This document shows positions 24,281 to 37,926 of a DNA stretch of 64,000 nucleotides, piece by piece. The notes beneath the pieces are model-generated. The model did not search any database. It was not told the DNA's origin and saw only the letters and a program-made list of their open reading frames with translations. Source of the DNA: Candidatus Latescibacterota bacterium (GTDB lineage: Bacteria > Latescibacterota > UBA2968); NCBI GenBank assembly GCA_965207885.1, contig OZ242311.1, forward strand, positions 640,001-704,000, written 5' to 3'. How positions within the stretch are numbered: position 1 is the first letter of the stretch; each line of letters opens with the position of its first letter. The position numbers and the translations under genes are program-made.

Positions 24281-25201
24281 ATGTCTATAGACCAGATACA
24301 AATTGCCTCGGAACTTCAGCGCGCGTTGCAGAGGTTTCTCGATTCTGTGACGCTGGAGCGCGGGTTGTCGGATAATACGGCGCGTGCTTATGAGCGCGAT
24401 TTGAGCCGGTATTTGACGCTGTTGACCGATTTGGGGATCCGCGCGCCGGATGAGATTTCTCAGACAGAGGTGTCCGCGCTGTTGAATTTGCTTTCGGAGA
24501 TGGGGCTGGAGGCGTCGAGTGTGGCGCGCAATTTGACGGCGGTGCGGATGTTTCACCGGTTTTTGTTGGGGGAGGGTCTCGCGCGCCGGGATCCGACGGA
24601 GCATTTGAAGCCGCCTAAGTTGGGGCGAAAGCTGCCTTCGGTGCTGAATATTTACGAGGTTGAGCGGTTGATGCTGGCACCGGATGTGGAGACGCCCCTG
24701 GGGTTGCGCGATCGCGCGCTTATAGAGATGCTTTATGGGGCGGGGTTGCGGGTGTCGGAGTTGATCGGCTTGTCGCAGGTGGATTTGCTGTTTGATGTGG
24801 AGGTGGTTCGGGTGCTGGGCAAGGGCGGGCGCGAGCGGGTGGTGCCGATTGGGTCAGAGGGTATTGAGTGGGTGACGGCGTATTTGCATGCGGTGCGTCC
24901 TGGTCTGGTTAAGCCCCATACCGGGGTTGAGGTGTTTTTGAATTTTCGCGGTGGTCCGTTGTCGCGGATGGGCGTGTGGAAGGTGCTGAGGCAATACGTG
25001 GTGCTGGCGGGGTTGGAGAAGAAGGTGAGTCCACATACGTTGCGGCATTCTTTTGCGACGCATTTGCTGGAGGGTGGCGCAGATTTGCGGGCGGTGCAAG
25101 AGATGCTGGGGCATGCGGATATTTCAACGACGCAGATTTATACCCATGTCGATCGGGAGTATTTGAAGGAGGTGCACCGGACGTTTCATCCGAGGGCGTG
25201 A
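24281..25201 (+). CDS. xerD: Tyrosine recombinase XerD
   Basis: ERGLSDNT..AY.RDL, RDRA..EMLYGAGLRVSEL, SPHTLRHSFATHLL, TTQIYTHV. Confidence 0.92.
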   Translation: MSIDQIQIASELQRALQRFLDSVTLERGLSDNTARAYERDLSRYLTLLTDLGIRAPDEISQTEVSALLNLLSEMGLEASSVARNLTAVRMFHRFLLGEGLARRDPTEHLKPPKLGRKLPSVLNIYEVERLMLAPDVETPLGLRDRALIEMLYGAGLRVSELIGLSQVDLLFDVEVVRVLGKGGRERVVPIGSEGIEWVTAYLHAVRPGLVKPHTGVEVFLNFRGGPLSRMGVWKVLRQYVVLAGLEKKVSPHTLRHSFATHLLEGGADLRAVQEMLGHADISTTQIYTHVDREYLKEVHRTFHPRA

Positions 25202-25816: not shown

Positions 25817-26281
25817 TTAAAAACGCTTGAGTGCTTCAGCAAAGTAGTCAATTTTCCGGTTGGGCACATCTTCGCCATTGTATTGCATCTCTATATACAC
25901 GCGCGGCGTTGGGTGCCTGTTTCGGTCATATTCACTGCGTAGTTCTATTGCAGTCTGTCCATTGTCCGTGATCCAGGTCGGGTTCAGGTATGCACAGTCT
26001 TTAACCGGATCCCCGTTTTTCTCTATAAGCACATTTTGGACATTCTCATATAACTTGTCACATTTCTGAAACAAGCAATAATCCAAAGATATGAGCTTAT
26101 ATATGTCTTCTTCTCGGCTAAAACGGTAGCTCAAAACACCCTCACACCTAAGGACCCACCCTTTATATGACAGTGTGAGTTGGTCTTCCTTGTGCAACTC
26201 CCACCCCGAACCTTCTTCGGATGCTTTTACTTCTTCCCGAGAAGCACCCCAGTACGTATTCAATACTTTTATTCTGGACAT
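25817..26281 (-). CDS. Hypothetical cargo protein (154 aa)
   Basis: GGAGG RBS; YWGASREEVKASE N-terminus; stop abuts the left TIR. Confidence 0.7.
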   Translation of the reverse strand: MSRIKVLNTYWGASREEVKASEEGSGWELHKEDQLTLSYKGWVLRCEGVLSYRFSREEDIYKLISLDYCLFQKCDKLYENVQNVLIEKNGDPVKDCAYLNPTWITDNGQTAIELRSEYDRNRHPTPRVYIEMQYNGEDVPNRKIDYFAEALKRF

Positions 26282-26347
26282 ATTATCCCTCCAAAAAGTT
26301 TTTCTTTGCTCTACGGCAAAGTGTAACTATATTGCTCTTGTTCATCA

Positions 26348-26880
26348 TTAGGTAGTGTCTGAAAAGTAAGCTTTGAAGAGTTGTCTGATACAGGCCAGCT
26401 TGACCATAGTGAGAAAATGAGTCGCCTTTTTTTCAAATCGGGTCACAATCCGTCGGCAGTGTTTAAGCCAACCAAAGAGACGCTCCACGATATTGCGTTT
26501 GGCATATAATCTTTTATCACACTTAGGCCGTGGTCCTCTCTTACGCCGTTTTCTGCCTTTGGGAATCGCCTTGTTTGGGATAGCAGCCTTGATACCCCGT
26601 TTGCGTAGATAGACTCTGATGCGTGAGACATCATAAGATTTATCAGCTACCAGATACTTGGGTCGGTTTCTTGGACGCCCTCGTTTGGTGGGTATGCATA
26701 CCTTTGACAGTAGCCTTTCAGCCTGTGTGGATTCTGACTGGTTACCAGGGAGAAGATCCACTGCTAAAGGATGCCCGACTGCATCGCAAAGAAGATGGAT
26801 TTTCGTGGTCAAACCGCCACGAGAGCGTCCTAAAGCGTGATCTGGGGGCTCTTCTTCACCCTTTTTGCCCTTTTTTTTTC
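26348..26880 (-). CDS. IS5 transposase OrfB (catalytic part, reached by a frame change)
   Basis: GRSRGGLTTKIH, ADKSYD, YAKRNIVERLFGWLKHCRRIVTRFEK. Confidence 0.85.
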
Positions 26881-27287
26881 GCTCCTGCCGCGGCTTGTGT
26901 GGCTCGAATATGGGTTGCATCCATCATCCAGGTCGCATAATCTAAAAGACCATCTTCACCCAATTTGAGATGTAGCTTTTCTACAATGCGATCAAAGGTG
27001 CCATCCTGTTTCCATTTGCAGAATCGGTCAAAGGCTGTCTGCCAAGGACCATATCGTTCTGGCAGGTCGCGCCAAGCTGCACCTGAACACAATATCCAGA
27101 AGATCCCGTTGAATAATGTACGATCATCCCGACGGGGACGACCCATCTTCTTCGGCGGTGGGAACAGGTCTTGGATCAGATGCCAAGCCTCGTCGCGCAG
27201 TTCATATCTCCGTTGCATATCATACTCCTTGGTTTAGGGCGTATGCTGCAACTAAAATACATACTTTACGACTTTTCAGACACTACC
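26351..27287 (-). mobile_element. IS5-family (IS427-like) insertion sequence
   Basis: 17 bp TIRs GGTAGTGTCTGAAAAGT, TA duplication, two-ORF transposase. Confidence 0.9.
26856..27218 (-). CDS. IS5 transposase OrfA
   Basis: RYEL.D..W, NGIFWIL.SGA.WRDLPERYGPWQT, DATHIRA, ends at an A9 run. Confidence 0.88.
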   Translation of the reverse strand: MQRRYELRDEAWHLIQDLFPPPKKMGRPRRDDRTLFNGIFWILCSGAAWRDLPERYGPWQTAFDRFCKWKQDGTFDRIVEKLHLKLGEDGLLDYATWMMDATHIRATQAAAGAKKKGQKG

Positions 27288-27706
27288 TAGGCAAACACCC
27301 GGAGGTCGGGTGGCCTACTAAATACAAGAGCCTTACAAAGGTCGGACTTGCTACCCGACCGGTGAATAGGTAGGACTTTCCGTAGATGTGTTTGCGTAAT
27401 GGTGAACTCCGCCCGGCACCTTTTTAAGTGCCGAGAGGGGGCACAGCATCATGCTTGCACATCCCTTCTGATCGAAGATAAAATCGCCTTACGCGAGATT
27501 ATGTGCCAAAGCCCTGGCGGATAAACAGTTATCGTTTATTGTCCGCCGGGGCTTTTTGTTTTTGCTGTGCCTCACGCACCGTGCTGTTCATCATCATTGG
27601 CATTGCGCTACCAAATGCATGAGCACTTCGGAGACAGGTTGCTAATCTGTCCAGGCAGTGGGGCACAGCTTGAACGGAAAGGAGGTGAATTAGGTTAATT
27701 CAGCCT
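27288..27706 (+). ncRNA. Putative structured ncRNA or long leader; its 5' end (26340-26350) is separated by the IS5
   Basis: Multiple long pairings: GCAAACAC/GTGTTTGC, GGTCGGGTGGC/GCTACCCGACC, GCACAT/ATGTGC, GCTGTGCCTCAC/GTGGGGCACAGC; no credible ORF. Confidence 0.5.
27508..27563 (+). terminator. Intrinsic terminator-like hairpin inside the structured region
   Basis: AAAGCCCTGGCGGA...TCCGCCGGGGCTTTTTGTTTTT. Confidence 0.65.
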
Positions 27707-27770
27707 CATTGTAGTATGCCACAAAAACAACCAATTCGCAAGTTTTTACAACAAGGAAAGGAGAAGAGTA

Positions 27771-28049
27771 ATGGCAGAAATAAAAACGGTTCAATGTCCA
27801 CATTGTAAAAAAAATGTGCGTTTTGAGAAAAGCGCATCTGGCAAATGGGTTGGAACTATTGCTGGTGGTGGCATAGGGTGGGGGATTGGGTCGGGTTTGG
27901 GCATAGCCGGGGGAATACTCGGCGCACCTATCGCTATACCCGCTGCGCTTGTGGCATTGGGTATAGGCGCACTATTGGGCAATAGAGCAGGGGCAATAGC
28001 AGATAATTCTGTAAAATGTCCAAACTGCAAGGAGCACATGTCAATATGA
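27771..28049 (+). CDS. Small glycine-zipper membrane protein flanked by two CxxC pairs
   Basis: CPHC...GxxxG-rich hydrophobic core...CPNC; AAGGAG RBS. Confidence 0.8.
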   Translation: MAEIKTVQCPHCKKNVRFEKSASGKWVGTIAGGGIGWGIGSGLGIAGGILGAPIAIPAALVALGIGALLGNRAGAIADNSVKCPNCKEHMSI

Positions 28050-29028: not shown

Positions 29029-29970
29029 TCAAGCCGTGAGGTCGCAATACCTCAGCCGTTTCCCCTCAAATCCTCGCACGATCATCTTCATCTGCTCAAT
29101 GGTGTCCTTCATCCGCATGTTCTGCCGTGCCACAAACTCTGCGATATACCTCCACAGGTGCTTCTTGCTCATCTTGTGATACACACCCATGATGGCACGT
29201 TTGATGCCCGACCAGAAAGATTCGATGCCGTTTGTGTGAGCGTCATCTCGGACATATTCTCCCCGCGAGTGAATCACCTTTTCGTGTTCGTATCCTTCCA
29301 GGTCATTATAGACGTGTGACCCGTCTGTATAGACGGTTGCACCCTTCTTGGTGCGATCTTCTATAAACGCGTGTAGGGTGTCCTCATCGGGATCGTCAAT
29401 CACAAGGGCCTGAACCTGTTTGGTCTCTCTATTCTTCACGCCAGCCACAGGGATTTTGCCCGATGTGCCTCTGCCAGCACGCAGTTTCTTCTTCGCGTGT
29501 TTGTTGCCTTCCTTGCCGCCGATATAGGTCTCATCAACTTCTACTGTGCCCTCAAACAGGAAGAGTTGCTCTTCTGCCATCGCCTCACGGATACGATGCA
29601 GAAGATGCCATGCTGTTTTCTGTGTGACACTCAAATCACGATGGATCTTCATGGATGAAATCCCTTTGAGTGTGGTGGTAAAAAGATAGACAGCAAATGC
29701 CCATATCTGATAGCCAAGGTTGGAACACGCCATAATGGTGCCCGTCTTTACAGAGAACCGTTTGTCACAGTCCCTGCATCTGTGTGGCATGGTCTTGTGC
29801 GCCGTCCTTTCATTCACATTGACACTCCCACAACACGGGCAGGCCATCCCATCAGGCCAGCGTGTGTGGATAAACCACTTCTCTGCGGTCGCGTTGTCGG
29901 GGAACATCTTGAACAACTGGATGAGGGATATGCCCTCTCGCTGATGCATGCCAGGCGCATTGCGTGCCAT
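29029..29970 (-). CDS. IS1595-family DDE transposase
   Basis: Zn ribbon CPCC/CRDC, HTH, VEVDETYIGG, VYTDG, HTNGIESFW. Confidence 0.95.
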   Translation of the reverse strand: MARNAPGMHQREGISLIQLFKMFPDNATAEKWFIHTRWPDGMACPCCGSVNVNERTAHKTMPHRCRDCDKRFSVKTGTIMACSNLGYQIWAFAVYLFTTTLKGISSMKIHRDLSVTQKTAWHLLHRIREAMAEEQLFLFEGTVEVDETYIGGKEGNKHAKKKLRAGRGTSGKIPVAGVKNRETKQVQALVIDDPDEDTLHAFIEDRTKKGATVYTDGSHVYNDLEGYEHEKVIHSRGEYVRDDAHTNGIESFWSGIKRAIMGVYHKMSKKHLWRYIAEFVARQNMRMKDTIEQMKMIVRGFEGKRLRYCDLTA

Positions 29971-32595: not shown

Positions 32596-33793
32596 CATAG
32601 TACACGACAAAAAATAAAAGACCTGTGAAAAAAGCTAAAAAGAGTTAGGTTTGAATGTCCCAAGACAAACCTTTCTCATCTTAACAAGGCACAGGTCTAT
32701 GTCTCCTGAAACTATTGAACTTCAAACGATTATGCAAGGATATTTTCACTGGCATAAAGCCCGAATAACGTTTACCGCTGCGTTCATATTGTCGCTGATA
32801 AAATTGCGTAGCGTCAATTTTATGAAACTGGCAAACGCACTCAATGGAACCGTCAAGCAGAAATCTAATTATCGTCGTATCCAACGCTTCTTTGCCCACT
32901 TTGCCTTACCCTATGCGTGTGTGAGACAATTGATCTTGCACTTATTACCTATAAAGTCGGATTTTATAGTCTCAATAGATCGCACCAATTGGAAGTTGGG
33001 AAAATTCAATATCAACATCCTAACCGCAGGCATTATCTATGAAGGGGTCGCCTTTCCTATCTGTTGGCACTTGTTAAAAAAACGGGGCAATTCCAATAGT
33101 GATGAGCGTATCCATTTGATGCAAGAAATGCTCAACTGCATCTGCAAATCGCATATCCGCGTTGTCGTCGCAGACAGAGAATTTATTGGAAGAGAATGGT
33201 TTAGGTGGTTAGACACACAAAATATACCCTTTGTTATTCGCATCAAGGAAAACGCTCTTGTCTCATCAGGCGGTAGAGAGATCCCCATAAGAAAACGGTT
33301 TGAAAATCTTAATATCCATCAGCAGGTCAACTTGTGCAAACGCCACCGCGTTTATGACCTGCCTGTATATCTGTCTGCACTAAGATTGAAGGACCAATAC
33401 CTCATTCTTGCCAGCAACCAAAAAGGTCAAGCCGCATTGGATACCTATAAAAAACGATGGGGCATTGAAGTCCTTTTTGCCAATCTTAAAAGTCGAGGAT
33501 TTAATCTGGAAGAGACCCATCTTATACATCAAGACCGCATTGAGAAACTCATCGCGCTTTTGGCCATTGCCTGCATCTGGGCGCATATCATCGGCGAATG
33601 GATAGCAAAAACAAATCCTTTGACGATCAAAAATCACGGGCGGATGGAGAAAAGTCTCTTCCGATATGGGTTGGACTATTTGCAGTATGTCCTGCTCAAT
33701 ATAAACCAACAAACCCAACAGTTCCTCATATGCATTCGTTTACTGAGTAATCCGCCACTGTTTAAAACAATTTAAGTTTTGTCGTGTACCATG
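32596..33793 (+). mobile_element. IS4-family (IS10-like) insertion sequence, copy 1 (1198 bp)
   Basis: TIRs CATAGTACACGACAAAA / TTTTGTCGTGTACCATG; 9 bp TSD GAAATCGAC. Confidence 0.95.
32651..33775 (+). CDS. IS4-family transposase
   Basis: IDRTNW, ADREF, YKKRWGIEVLFANLKSRGFNLE (YREK motif). Confidence 0.95.
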   Translation: MNVPRQTFLILTRHRSMSPETIELQTIMQGYFHWHKARITFTAAFILSLIKLRSVNFMKLANALNGTVKQKSNYRRIQRFFAHFALPYACVRQLILHLLPIKSDFIVSIDRTNWKLGKFNINILTAGIIYEGVAFPICWHLLKKRGNSNSDERIHLMQEMLNCICKSHIRVVVADREFIGREWFRWLDTQNIPFVIRIKENALVSSGGREIPIRKRFENLNIHQQVNLCKRHRVYDLPVYLSALRLKDQYLILASNQKGQAALDTYKKRWGIEVLFANLKSRGFNLEETHLIHQDRIEKLIALLAIACIWAHIIGEWIAKTNPLTIKNHGRMEKSLFRYGLDYLQYVLLNINQQTQQFLICIRLLSNPPLFKTI

Positions 33794-36784: not shown

Positions 36785-36819
36785 TTGCATAAATTACTGT
36801 TTTTGTGTATATTTACATT

Positions 36820-37926
36820 ATGGAATACTTAACATACAAATACAAAATGTATAGTCTCTGTGATCGCAATATGTATATCCATAGGGATATAGATTCTTTT
36901 GCTGAGGTGTATAATCATTTCATTGCCTTGCACAAGCGATACTATCGACGTTTTGGCAAGTATCCCAGTAAGTTCACAATGATTAACCATTTGGCAAAGC
37001 TGAAAAGAACAACACGCTTTGCACATTGGCGTTTGTTGCCGTCACAGGCATTGCAAAATGTGATTGAGCGCATAGACTTTGGCTATCAGAAATTTTTTGC
37101 CAGAGATAATAAGCGTCCGCCTACTTTCAGGTCTCGCTTTCGGTATCAGTCCTATACGCTGAAGCAAGCAGGATACAAATTCCTTGAGCGTAACAAGGTG
37201 CGTATTGGCAAGCGTATATTCAGATACCATAAGAGCAGAAAGTTCGATGTAGAGCGTATCAAGATGGTCACAATCAAACGTGACCGCGTAGGCGATTTGT
37301 GGCTATGTGTTGTTGCAAAGGCTGAGAGAATCAAGTCATTCATTATCAAGAACGGTAAAACCGCAGGTTTTGACTTTGGCTTGCAAACATATCTAACAGC
37401 CTCAGACAGCACAAGGACACAATCGCCATTGTTCTTCAATCGTAATTCGAGGAAAGTCAAAAAGGCTAATCGCAATCTTTCTCGTAAGAAGAAAGGTAGC
37501 AACAATCGTCACAGGGCAAGAGTAAATCATGCCAGAGTGCATAGGCGCGTTGCTAATCAGCGCAGAGACTATCATTGGCGACTTGCCTATCAACTGTGTA
37601 AAGACTATGACGTTATGTTCTTTGAGACTTTGAACATTGACGCCATGAAACAGTTGTGGGGACGAAAGATTAGCGATTTGGGCTTCTCAGACTTCTTGAA
37701 CATACTCAAGTATCTGGCAAAAAAGACTGGCAAAGTTGTCAAACAAATTGACCAATGGCTGCCCACGTCAAAGACATGCTCTGCTTGTGGCACAGTCAAA
37801 GAGGACCTCGAATTGCGAGAGAGAACATTCCATTGTTGCGCGTGTGGTCTTGAGATAGACAGAGACCTCAACGCGGCGATAAACATTCACAGGTGGGGGC
37901 GTCCACCTCTGGCGGAGGTAGCGTAA
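36820..37926 (+). CDS. tnpB: RNA-guided endonuclease TnpB (IS200/IS605 family), no tnpA
   Basis: TYKYKMY, SQALQ, GFDFGL (D), FETLN (E), TSKTCSAC/CCAC, DRDLNAAINI (D). Confidence 0.93.
   Translation: MEYLTYKYKMYSLCDRNMYIHRDIDSFAEVYNHFIALHKRYYRRFGKYPSKFTMINHLAKLKRTTRFAHWRLLPSQALQNVIERIDFGYQKFFARDNKRPPTFRSRFRYQSYTLKQAGYKFLERNKVRIGKRIFRYHKSRKFDVERIKMVTIKRDRVGDLWLCVVAKAERIKSFIIKNGKTAGFDFGLQTYLTASDSTRTQSPLFFNRNSRKVKKANRNLSRKKKGSNNRHRARVNHARVHRRVANQRRDYHWRLAYQLCKDYDVMFFETLNIDAMKQLWGRKISDLGFSDFLNILKYLAKKTGKVVKQIDQWLPTSKTCSACGTVKEDLELRERTFHCCACGLEIDRDLNAAINIHRWGRPPLAEVA

Follow-up and report, generated by a model that had tools for sequence, protein, structure and literature searches.

We analysed a window of 64,000 nucleotides (nt), positions 640,001 to 704,000 of contig OZ242311.1, from the genome of a Candidatus Latescibacterota bacterium. 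At positions 26351..27287 of this window, to which all coordinates below refer, an insertion sequence (IS) of the IS5 family with a length of 937 bp lies on the minus strand. It separates a promoter and the first nucleotides of a structured RNA from the remainder of that RNA, a terminator-like hairpin and a gene for a small protein, all of which lie on the plus strand. A preliminary description of the locus had proposed that the IS splits the first helix of a hidden RNA. The position of the IS, homology across the junction and a naturally occurring empty site agree with this proposal, and we regard it as practically certain that the IS disrupts one copy of a real and conserved RNA family.

The IS is bounded by perfect terminal inverted repeats of 17 nt, the arms of which cover 26349-26367 and 27271-27289 when the flanking TA is included, and by a TA target duplication (26349-50 and 27288-89). 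Two overlapping open reading frames (ORFs) on the minus strand (27218-26856 and 26920-26348) match the Pfam families DUF4096 (2.6e-28) and DDE_Tnp_1 (5.1e-17). A DDE_Tnp_1 transposase with a DUF4096 N-terminal part, terminal inverted repeats and a short target duplication are the features of the IS5 family. The genome contains 23 copies, each 100% identical across 937 bases, which indicates that the IS moved very recently. Furthermore, a contig from DNA run X7, which carries a sponge metagenome label and stems from another study, links 26348 directly to 27288 and lacks the 939 bases between them. The uninterrupted allele therefore occurs in nature. The second ORF of the IS continues up to the boundary of the element and takes its stop codon from the TA duplication and one flanking base (26348-26350). 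The two ORFs overlap at a T9 run (26871-26879; A9 on the coding strand), which is one base shorter in one contig of run X22; some IS copies may therefore encode a fused transposase.

Deletion of 26351-27289 by script joined the 11 nt upstream of the IS to the sequence downstream of it. As had been predicted, the rejoined strand (26340..26350 and 27290..27298) pairs with the sequence up to 27407 (27388..27407), forming 11 + 8 bp with one mismatch and a duplex energy of -29.0 kcal/mol; in this helix, 26340..26350 pairs with 27397-27407 and 27290..27298 with 27388-27395. The rejoined 156 nt folded to -62.6 kcal/mol, compared to -43.9 ± 4.3 kcal/mol in dinucleotide shuffles (z -4.35, none of 200 as low), which is consistent with the originally claimed structured RNA. 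The segment 3′ of the IS folded alone reached a z-score of -1.89, and 7 of 200 shuffles were as low. BLAST alignments of the rejoined sequence with loci of related genomes crossed the junction (L007, 92.7% identity over 178 nt; L008, 82.3% over 175 nt; L009, 78.3% over 207 nt). This junction-spanning homology and the empty site in the X7 contig show independently of each other that the joined state is ancestral.

The length of about 400 nt given in the preliminary description had to be corrected. The RNA unit comprises approximately 170 nt (26340-26350 and 27290-27433), and conservation among relatives is confined to about 26328-27440, while 20 other genomes of the genus contain nothing that matches 27441-27770. 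The low folding energy of 27435-27770 (z -4.65) is largely owed to a terminator-like hairpin at 27508-27562; the spacer that follows it (27563..27770) lies outside the conserved family and folds like its shuffles (z -1.61, 11 of 200 as low). Both copies of GGGGCACAGC, which had been described as alternative pairing partners, are present in this second half, as are the described hairpins and, within the spacer, the AAGGAGGT partly buried in one of them. The GGGGCACAGC alternatives, the hairpins containing GCTA and AAGGAGGT show neither conservation nor a clear folding excess. Within the spacer, 17 nt (27582-27598) are 82% identical to the start of the RNA (26333-26349); they could be a remnant of a second RNA copy or a chance similarity.

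To collect further members, we derived a pattern of 28 positions with 20 fixed bases from the nine homologues identified first. At least 118 loci in contigs representing one genome per species and 49 loci in metagenome contigs matched it, whereas about one match would be expected by chance in the genome collection according to our own arithmetic. Viral contigs contained no match. The genome loci are distributed over nine phyla, namely Pseudomonadota (26), Latescibacterota (24), Acidobacteriota (17), Gemmatimonadota (14), Nitrospirota (13), Binatota (12), Rhodothermota (5), Verrucomicrobiota (4) and Chloroflexota (2), with one locus unassigned. Since many of them sit on closed chromosomes, as judged by title, binning error cannot account for this spread. 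A covariance model (R1) was seeded with 86 sequences, after 21 of 107 aligned sequences had been dropped as duplicates, because of long insertions or because they contained no P5 helix (see below). R1 detected nine copies in the genome of the window, including the window copy itself (27297-27420, 90.1 bits, E 3.6e-14), and had matches in 62 of 151 sampled Latescibacterota genomes, with 1-14 copies per genome. Three genera were nearly saturated (18/19, 15/15 and 18/22), and few genomes of other genera carried the RNA. Of 83 sources outside the seed, 78 gave full-length matches, among them all 17 of the dropped sequences that had been submitted to the model. The other five (L044, L062, L089, L105 and L121) match the pattern without matching R1 and may be truncated copies or chance matches.

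The members share the strand order P1a-P2a-core-P1b-P2b, with a and b denoting the 5′ and 3′ strands of a helix, in which P1 and P2 cross to form a pseudoknot topology. P1 is the helix that the IS has severed in the window. Most members have a P1 of 17-23 bp, the sequence of which is free to vary. Cognate P1 strands form duplexes of -29.6 kcal/mol on average compared to -14.5 kcal/mol for strands taken from different loci, and 99 of 108 cognate duplexes fall under the 5th percentile of this control. A linker of 3-10 nt connects P1 to P2; in the window it is the C-rich J1/2 (27299..27304), for which the alignment consensus is CCCGCnnn. The 5′ strand of P2, GUCGGGUNN in the family, pairs with NNGCCCGRC, located downstream of P1b and separated from it by 0-2 nt in 103 of 107 members. 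In the window this strand reads GUCGGGUGG (27305..27313) and contains the invariant GUCGGGU; its conserved partner CCGCCCGGC (27409..27417) had been overlooked in the preliminary description. Since the search pattern itself fixes part of P2, information comes from the two N pairs and two U-G/U-A positions alone. Canonical pairing at both N positions was seen in 86 of 108 loci, against a mean of 29.9 and a maximum of 45 after shuffling, and P2 pairing reaches 97.7% in the 86-sequence alignment and 95.7% in the unseen set.

P2 encloses the core (27314..27374), which consists of P3 (27314-18/27370-74; CCUGC/GCAGG in the family), an internal loop with GAAUA-like strands (27319-29/27364-69; GAAUA on both strands in the family, AAAUA on the 5′ strand of the window copy), P4 (27330-32/27361-63) and P5 (27340-45/27355-60) with its apical loop (27346-54). 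A pyrimidine-rich linker recognised in the alignment, J3/1 (27375..27387), leads from P3 to P1b. The 20 modelled pairs of P2 to P5 are canonical in 96.6% of cases in the 86 sequences, and their covariation score of 0.280 exceeds both shuffled alignments (0.147; 0 of 500 as high) and alignments with a slid partner strand (0.019-0.060). The corresponding values in the unseen set were 95.4% and 0.287 compared to 0.166 (0 of 500), with an alignment that was fitted to the model, which favours it. Taken together, covariation supports P1-P5. G-U pairs are frequent, as for example U-G in 69 and 73 of 86 sequences at two P2 positions. They fit only the strand read from the promoter.

A further hairpin, P6 (27414..27433, with the arms 27414-19 and 27428-33), has its first bases inside the P2b motif CCCGRC in 99 of 106 members. 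Since it starts within P2b bases, P2 and P6 compete with each other and are mutually exclusive. Mutually exclusive helices had also been part of the preliminary description, and such pairings do exist. Of the helices named there, GGTCGG/CCGACC is the conserved P5, whereas GGTCGGGTGGC/GCTACCCGACC (27304-27314 with 27350-27360) is weak across the family: the window copy reaches -23.2 kcal/mol, the best value of 108 members, but the family mean is -12.1 kcal/mol and only 22 of 108 are at -15 kcal/mol or below.

The centre of the P5 loop is self-complementary in 69 of 86 sequences, in the form of six different 4-mers (AGCU, CAUG, GAUC, AAUU, GGCC and UGCA). Where two or four positions deviate from AGCU, the variant is again a palindrome, CUUG being the only exception; the single-base variants are not palindromic (CGCU 11, UGCU 3 and others). 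In the unseen set, 41 of 49 short loops contain a palindrome of at least 4 nt, among them the new versions GCGC, GUGCAC, GUAC and UUAA. Because the covarying bases at the loop centre cannot pair within one hairpin, pairing between the loops of two molecules is the simplest reading, and the RNA may form dimers in this way. Known kissing elements, such as the DIS hairpin of HIV-1 and the hairpins of the guanidine-II riboswitch, likewise keep a self-complementary loop centre through multi-base changes. In contrast to these, the loop described here is one arm of a larger pseudoknotted RNA, its dimerisation is postulated, and 11 of 86 sequences carry the non-self-complementary CGCU.

The loop of the window copy reads TTGCTA, compared to TAGCTA in its close relative L008, so that a single base breaks its self-complementarity. 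Together with a weak -35 box this adds to the damage done by the IS, which leaves the promoter and the 11 nt at the 5′ end of the RNA detached from everything downstream; the window copy is most likely inactive. The inactivation must be recent, since the IS copies have not diverged and the empty site is still found.

The sigma-70-like promoter upstream of the IS (26305..26333) consists of this weak -35 box (TTTGCT, 26305-26310), a 17-bp spacer and the previously noted -10 box TATATT (26328-26333). When the best -35/-10 match was taken at each of 153 distinct loci, 130 of them had a -10 box beginning 35-42 nt upstream of P2a, and a promoter score of at least 13 was reached by 120 compared to 26 in a control segment. 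In the rejoined window sequence the -10 box sits 38 nt before P2a; it is kept in L007-L010, where L007 has TTGACA-17-TATATT. P1 starts 24-27 nt before P2a. Given the fixed spacing of both -10 box and P1, transcription is expected to start at the first P1 pair or no more than a few bases away from it, and the first P1 base, which the preliminary description had also named, is most likely the start.

Downstream of the RNA we searched the 66 distinct loci with enough DNA for ORFs of at least 70 aa on the same strand that start 10-130 nt past P2b. Such an ORF was present at 48 loci, at a median distance of 43 nt (interquartile range 37-50) and within 25-65 nt in 43 of the 48. An N-terminal hydrophobic segment was predicted for 36 of 50 downstream ORFs compared to 5 of 50 ORFs of an admittedly crude control, and 12 of 50 contained a lipobox-like motif. 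Pfam assignments include an ankyrin-repeat lipoprotein, an outer membrane protein barrel, proteases of the families M4, M8, M10 and M12A, glycosyltransferases (GT2, GT8 and GT25), CsgG, a collagen-like protein, DUF1232 and a MunI restriction enzyme. The last of these is an odd client among the exported proteins: at L073:1638-2225, 21 nt separate a member of the RNA family from the MunI-type restriction endonuclease gene that follows it (Pfam 3.1e-66). Upstream of the RNA, the nearest ORFs at 73 loci belonged to scattered families (IS110, IS1595, HigB and others), none of which recurred as a potential protein partner. Transposase and toxin-antitoxin genes occur near some of the family loci.

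In the genus of the window, the RNA is followed 60-110 nt after P6 by a terminator-like hairpin with a U run, which begins with AGCCCTGGCGGA in L007-L010. A repeat scan and folding placed the corresponding hairpin of the window at 27508..27562, about 90 nt past P6, where a terminator had already been suspected. One other copy in the same genome has a hairpin followed by U8 about 35 nt past P2b. A terminator motif, GCCCTGGCGGA, was considered as a general partner of the family and rejected, because only one of its six occurrences in the genome lies downstream of an RNA copy. The next ORF in the window, 330 nt from P6, encodes a protein of 92 aa (27771..28049, plus strand, taken from the ORF list) with zinc-ribbon ends and a glycine-rich hydrophobic middle; the zinc-ribbon matches in Pfam are weak and under the cut-offs. 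This is the glycine-zipper gene which the preliminary description had placed under the control of the RNA. A role of the RNA as a leader for a downstream gene of the envelope type is most likely for the family. For this particular gene it can be stated by analogy only, since a terminator-like hairpin and 330 nt intervene and the RNA is broken.

No RNA family in Rfam accounts for these observations. None of the 4227 models of Rfam 15 matched the window at its gathering threshold, and the best score below threshold in 26200-27800 belonged to sRNA-Xcc1 (RF02221; 23.1 bits, E 0.39, gathering score 53). This hint was not reproduced at eight uninterrupted homologous loci, which gave no relevant Rfam match at E up to 1. 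The likeness to the C4/CI antisense RNAs of phages suggested in the preliminary description could not be sustained: a search of 26200-27800 listed no model of the C4 type even at E up to 10, and while these RNAs and sRNA-Xcc1 share the small size of the family, C4 and CI differ from it in that the family sits in chromosomal leaders and is missing from the viral contigs. A literature search, as far as listings and the openings of abstracts tell, returned no description of such a motif. The family thus appears to be a previously undescribed class within the structured bacterial leader RNAs.

On balance, an intact member is probably a cis-acting, switchable 5′ leader of the riboswitch type, whose transcription, switching, signal and regulatory outcome we infer from the promoter at a constant position, the narrow range of distances to the start codon and the competition between P2 and P6. 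Transcribed from its own sigma-70-type promoter, the RNA would have the first base of P1 as its 5′ end. The invariant GUCGGGU would then pair with the GCCCGRC just past P1b to form P2, enclosing the three-helix core in a pseudoknot. Alternatively, the 3′ strand of P2 would be captured by P6, which forms together with the 15-30 nt that follow. Expression of the gene that starts about 43 nt downstream, usually one for an exported protein, a lipoprotein or a surface-modifying protein, could then depend on whether or not a ligand or factor holds the P1/P2 core in place, and the self-complementary P5 loop might let two such RNAs pair loop to loop. A conserved structured domain in a 5′ leader, as expected of a riboswitch, was found both in the covariation and in the position of the ORFs. 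Riboswitches and orphan candidates for varied surface genes, for example the c-di-GMP classes, likewise combine a 5′ leader and a conserved pseudoknotted core with varied downstream genes, and likewise contain a core-helix strand that can be captured by a downstream hairpin. Unlike them, the RNA described here matches no Rfam model, shows no general terminator or Shine-Dalgarno (SD)-masking platform, and its transcript would begin exactly at P1.

Several points weigh against this reading. Transcription is itself deduced, as the contigs of the RNA runs X22 and X24 cover only the IS with foreign flanks and are uninformative on the RNA and its ends. Eighteen of the 66 loci have no close ORF, and where an ORF is present, the comparison of signal-like N-termini suffers from the crude control and from uncurated start codons. 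The downstream genes have no common pathway, and hence give no hint of a ligand, and 33 of 50 have no Pfam family. None of the usual expression platforms was found: a general SD-masking hairpin was tried and rejected (pairing of the SD core 0.48 compared to 0.57 in shuffled sequences, 13 of 38 loci above control), and P6 is mostly not followed by a U run. Finally, the linker of 3-10 nt may put too much strain on a fold that contains both P1 (about 20 bp) and P2 (9 bp), which are perhaps alternatives.

The terminator-like hairpins which follow the RNA in the genus of the window also fit a free-standing small RNA. The family could accordingly consist of trans-acting small RNAs, or of the RNA component of a ribonucleoprotein, with own promoter and terminator, for which the downstream genes are mere neighbours. 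We consider this unlikely, although the hairpin and U run precede any ORF in the window and in L007-L010, one copy has its U8 hairpin close to P2b, the ORF-free loci would be explained, and up to 14 copies occur per genome. The tight distance of the start codons, the same-strand ORFs at 48 of 66 loci and the enrichment of exported proteins would be unexpected for such an RNA, and no recurrent protein gene adjoins it.

The same hairpins bear on a second possibility, in which the promoter-proximal RNA would act on RNA polymerase, so that transcription passes terminators into horizontally acquired surface genes. Processive antitermination RNAs of this kind are put of phage HK022 and EAR of Bacillus. 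The family resembles them as a structured RNA near its promoter and ahead of surface or polysaccharide genes, and, in the genus of the window, also in the terminator-like hairpins between RNA and genes. A transcript that starts at the element, clients that are surface or secreted proteins including glycosyltransferases, and a target as conserved as the polymerase, which would suit nine phyla, fit as well. However, no likeness to put or EAR was detected with Rfam, most loci have no terminator between the RNA and a start codon about 43 nt away, and the competition between P2 and P6 would be superfluous. Antitermination is therefore improbable in our judgement.

Slightly more improbable still is a constitutive expression cassette without any sensing, that is, a promoter combined with a 5′ structure for mRNA stability or stronger translation, which would be spread by mobile DNA. 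The burial of the RNA 5′ end in a helix of about 20 bp would suit a stabiliser, and mobility is suggested by the transposases and toxin-antitoxin genes near some loci, by a tree that mixes phyla and by a repeat of 2.77 kb that carries the RNA. This unit occurs as four 100% identical copies in the genome (L132:524-3291, equal to G000:C1:304523-307290, and three further places). It contains a basic ORF of 71 aa, an intact member of the RNA family, a signal-peptide protein of 210 aa and a transposase-like ORF of 279 aa, and looks like a transposon that carries the RNA with its gene. A plain stabiliser, however, needs no invariant core, pseudoknot, competing hairpin or covarying self-complementary loop.

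Four identical 74-nt BLAST matches lie within the copies of this 2.77-kb repeat. A tRNA-like origin, which these matches had prompted, was rejected, as ARAGORN found no tRNA or tmRNA gene in the window and 11 loci. The apparent 74-nt repeat, the long inverted repeat around a middle of variable length and the multi-copy, cross-phylum distribution could also be taken as signs of an element acting at the DNA level, either a miniature transposon or an attC-type recombination site made of a folded single strand. We regard this as very improbable, since the ends (P1) vary and the middle is invariant, which is the reverse of a transposon, the G-U pairs fit one strand, the promoter is at a fixed distance, no target duplications or arrays were seen, and the viral contigs are free of the pattern.

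HDV-like ribozymes form a nested double pseudoknot with a short P1, P1.1, P4 and a J4/2 that carries the catalytic cytosine. Self-cleavage is hardly credible for the family, which shares their strand order P1a-P2a-hairpin domain-P1b-P2b, the continuation of P2 into P3 without a linker and the occurrence in multiple copies beside varied genes, but matches no Rfam ribozyme, has a P1 about three times as long, has no P4 or J4/2 (P1b and P2b being separated by the 0-2 nt mentioned above) and hence no place for the catalytic cytosine, and owes its 5′ end at P1 to the promoter without cleavage.

The cis-acting, switchable leader is therefore the reading we retain for the family. If true, it adds a new class of structured regulatory RNA, with covariation support comparable to that of accepted riboswitch candidates and with unusual traits: a pseudoknot that is closed by the 5′ end of the transcript, an evolutionarily kept self-complementary loop and a distribution that follows habitat rather than phylogeny. 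The genes which the RNA marks, for exported proteins, proteases, ankyrin proteins and glycosyltransferases, are of the kinds thought to shape contact between symbiont and host. The RNA would thus be a handle on co-regulated genes of uncultured sponge symbionts and a defined target for ligand screening and structural work. For the window alone the finding is modest, namely one RNA copy killed by a very active IS.

The habitat is indicated by sponge-metagenome runs, of which X5-X8 contain 0.23-0.40 of the sampled words of the window DNA. Many other series of metagenome-assembled genomes that carry the RNA family presumably also derive from sponges. It may be speculated that the family is a riboswitch-like sensor which works as a loop-loop dimer, has spread in sponge-associated bacteria of at least nine phyla and couples a shared signal of host life, such as a metabolite of the host or the community, to the exported and surface proteins on display; we put this forward as a possible, if rather doubtful, extension. 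A tree of the RNA contained 24 changes of phylum label, compared to a possible minimum of 7 and to a mean of 50.9 (minimum 43) for shuffled labels. This fits lineage-specific evolution with some transfer, or merely the weak signal of a short RNA.

Several loci stand out within the family. L051, from Latescibacterota, is identical to L008 of the window's genus. L036, L047, L050, L075, L099 and L104 are near-identical including the promoter and belong to Latescibacterota records with the exception of L050, a Gemmatimonadota record, which could reflect a recent transfer between phyla or a mis-binned contig. A Nitrospirota subtype (L027, L030, L037, L038, L084, L100 and L111) has an insertion of 15-25 nt between P5 and P4b and glycosyltransferase genes downstream at most loci; genome OY763007.1 carries at least five identical copies of it. 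Elsewhere, RNA copies are paired or clustered on the same strand at distances of 0.5-15 kb, as in L011 (1478-1651 and 1968-2145), G015, G020, G060 and G148.

The surroundings of the RNA in the window are rich in mobile DNA. Three further transposase genes lie within 10 kb, of the IS1595 type (29029-29970), the DDE_Tnp_1 type (32651-33775) and a TnpB/Cas12f-like OrfB_IS605 type (36805-37926), and the region past a xerD-like gene (24281-25201) has the appearance of a landing ground for such elements.

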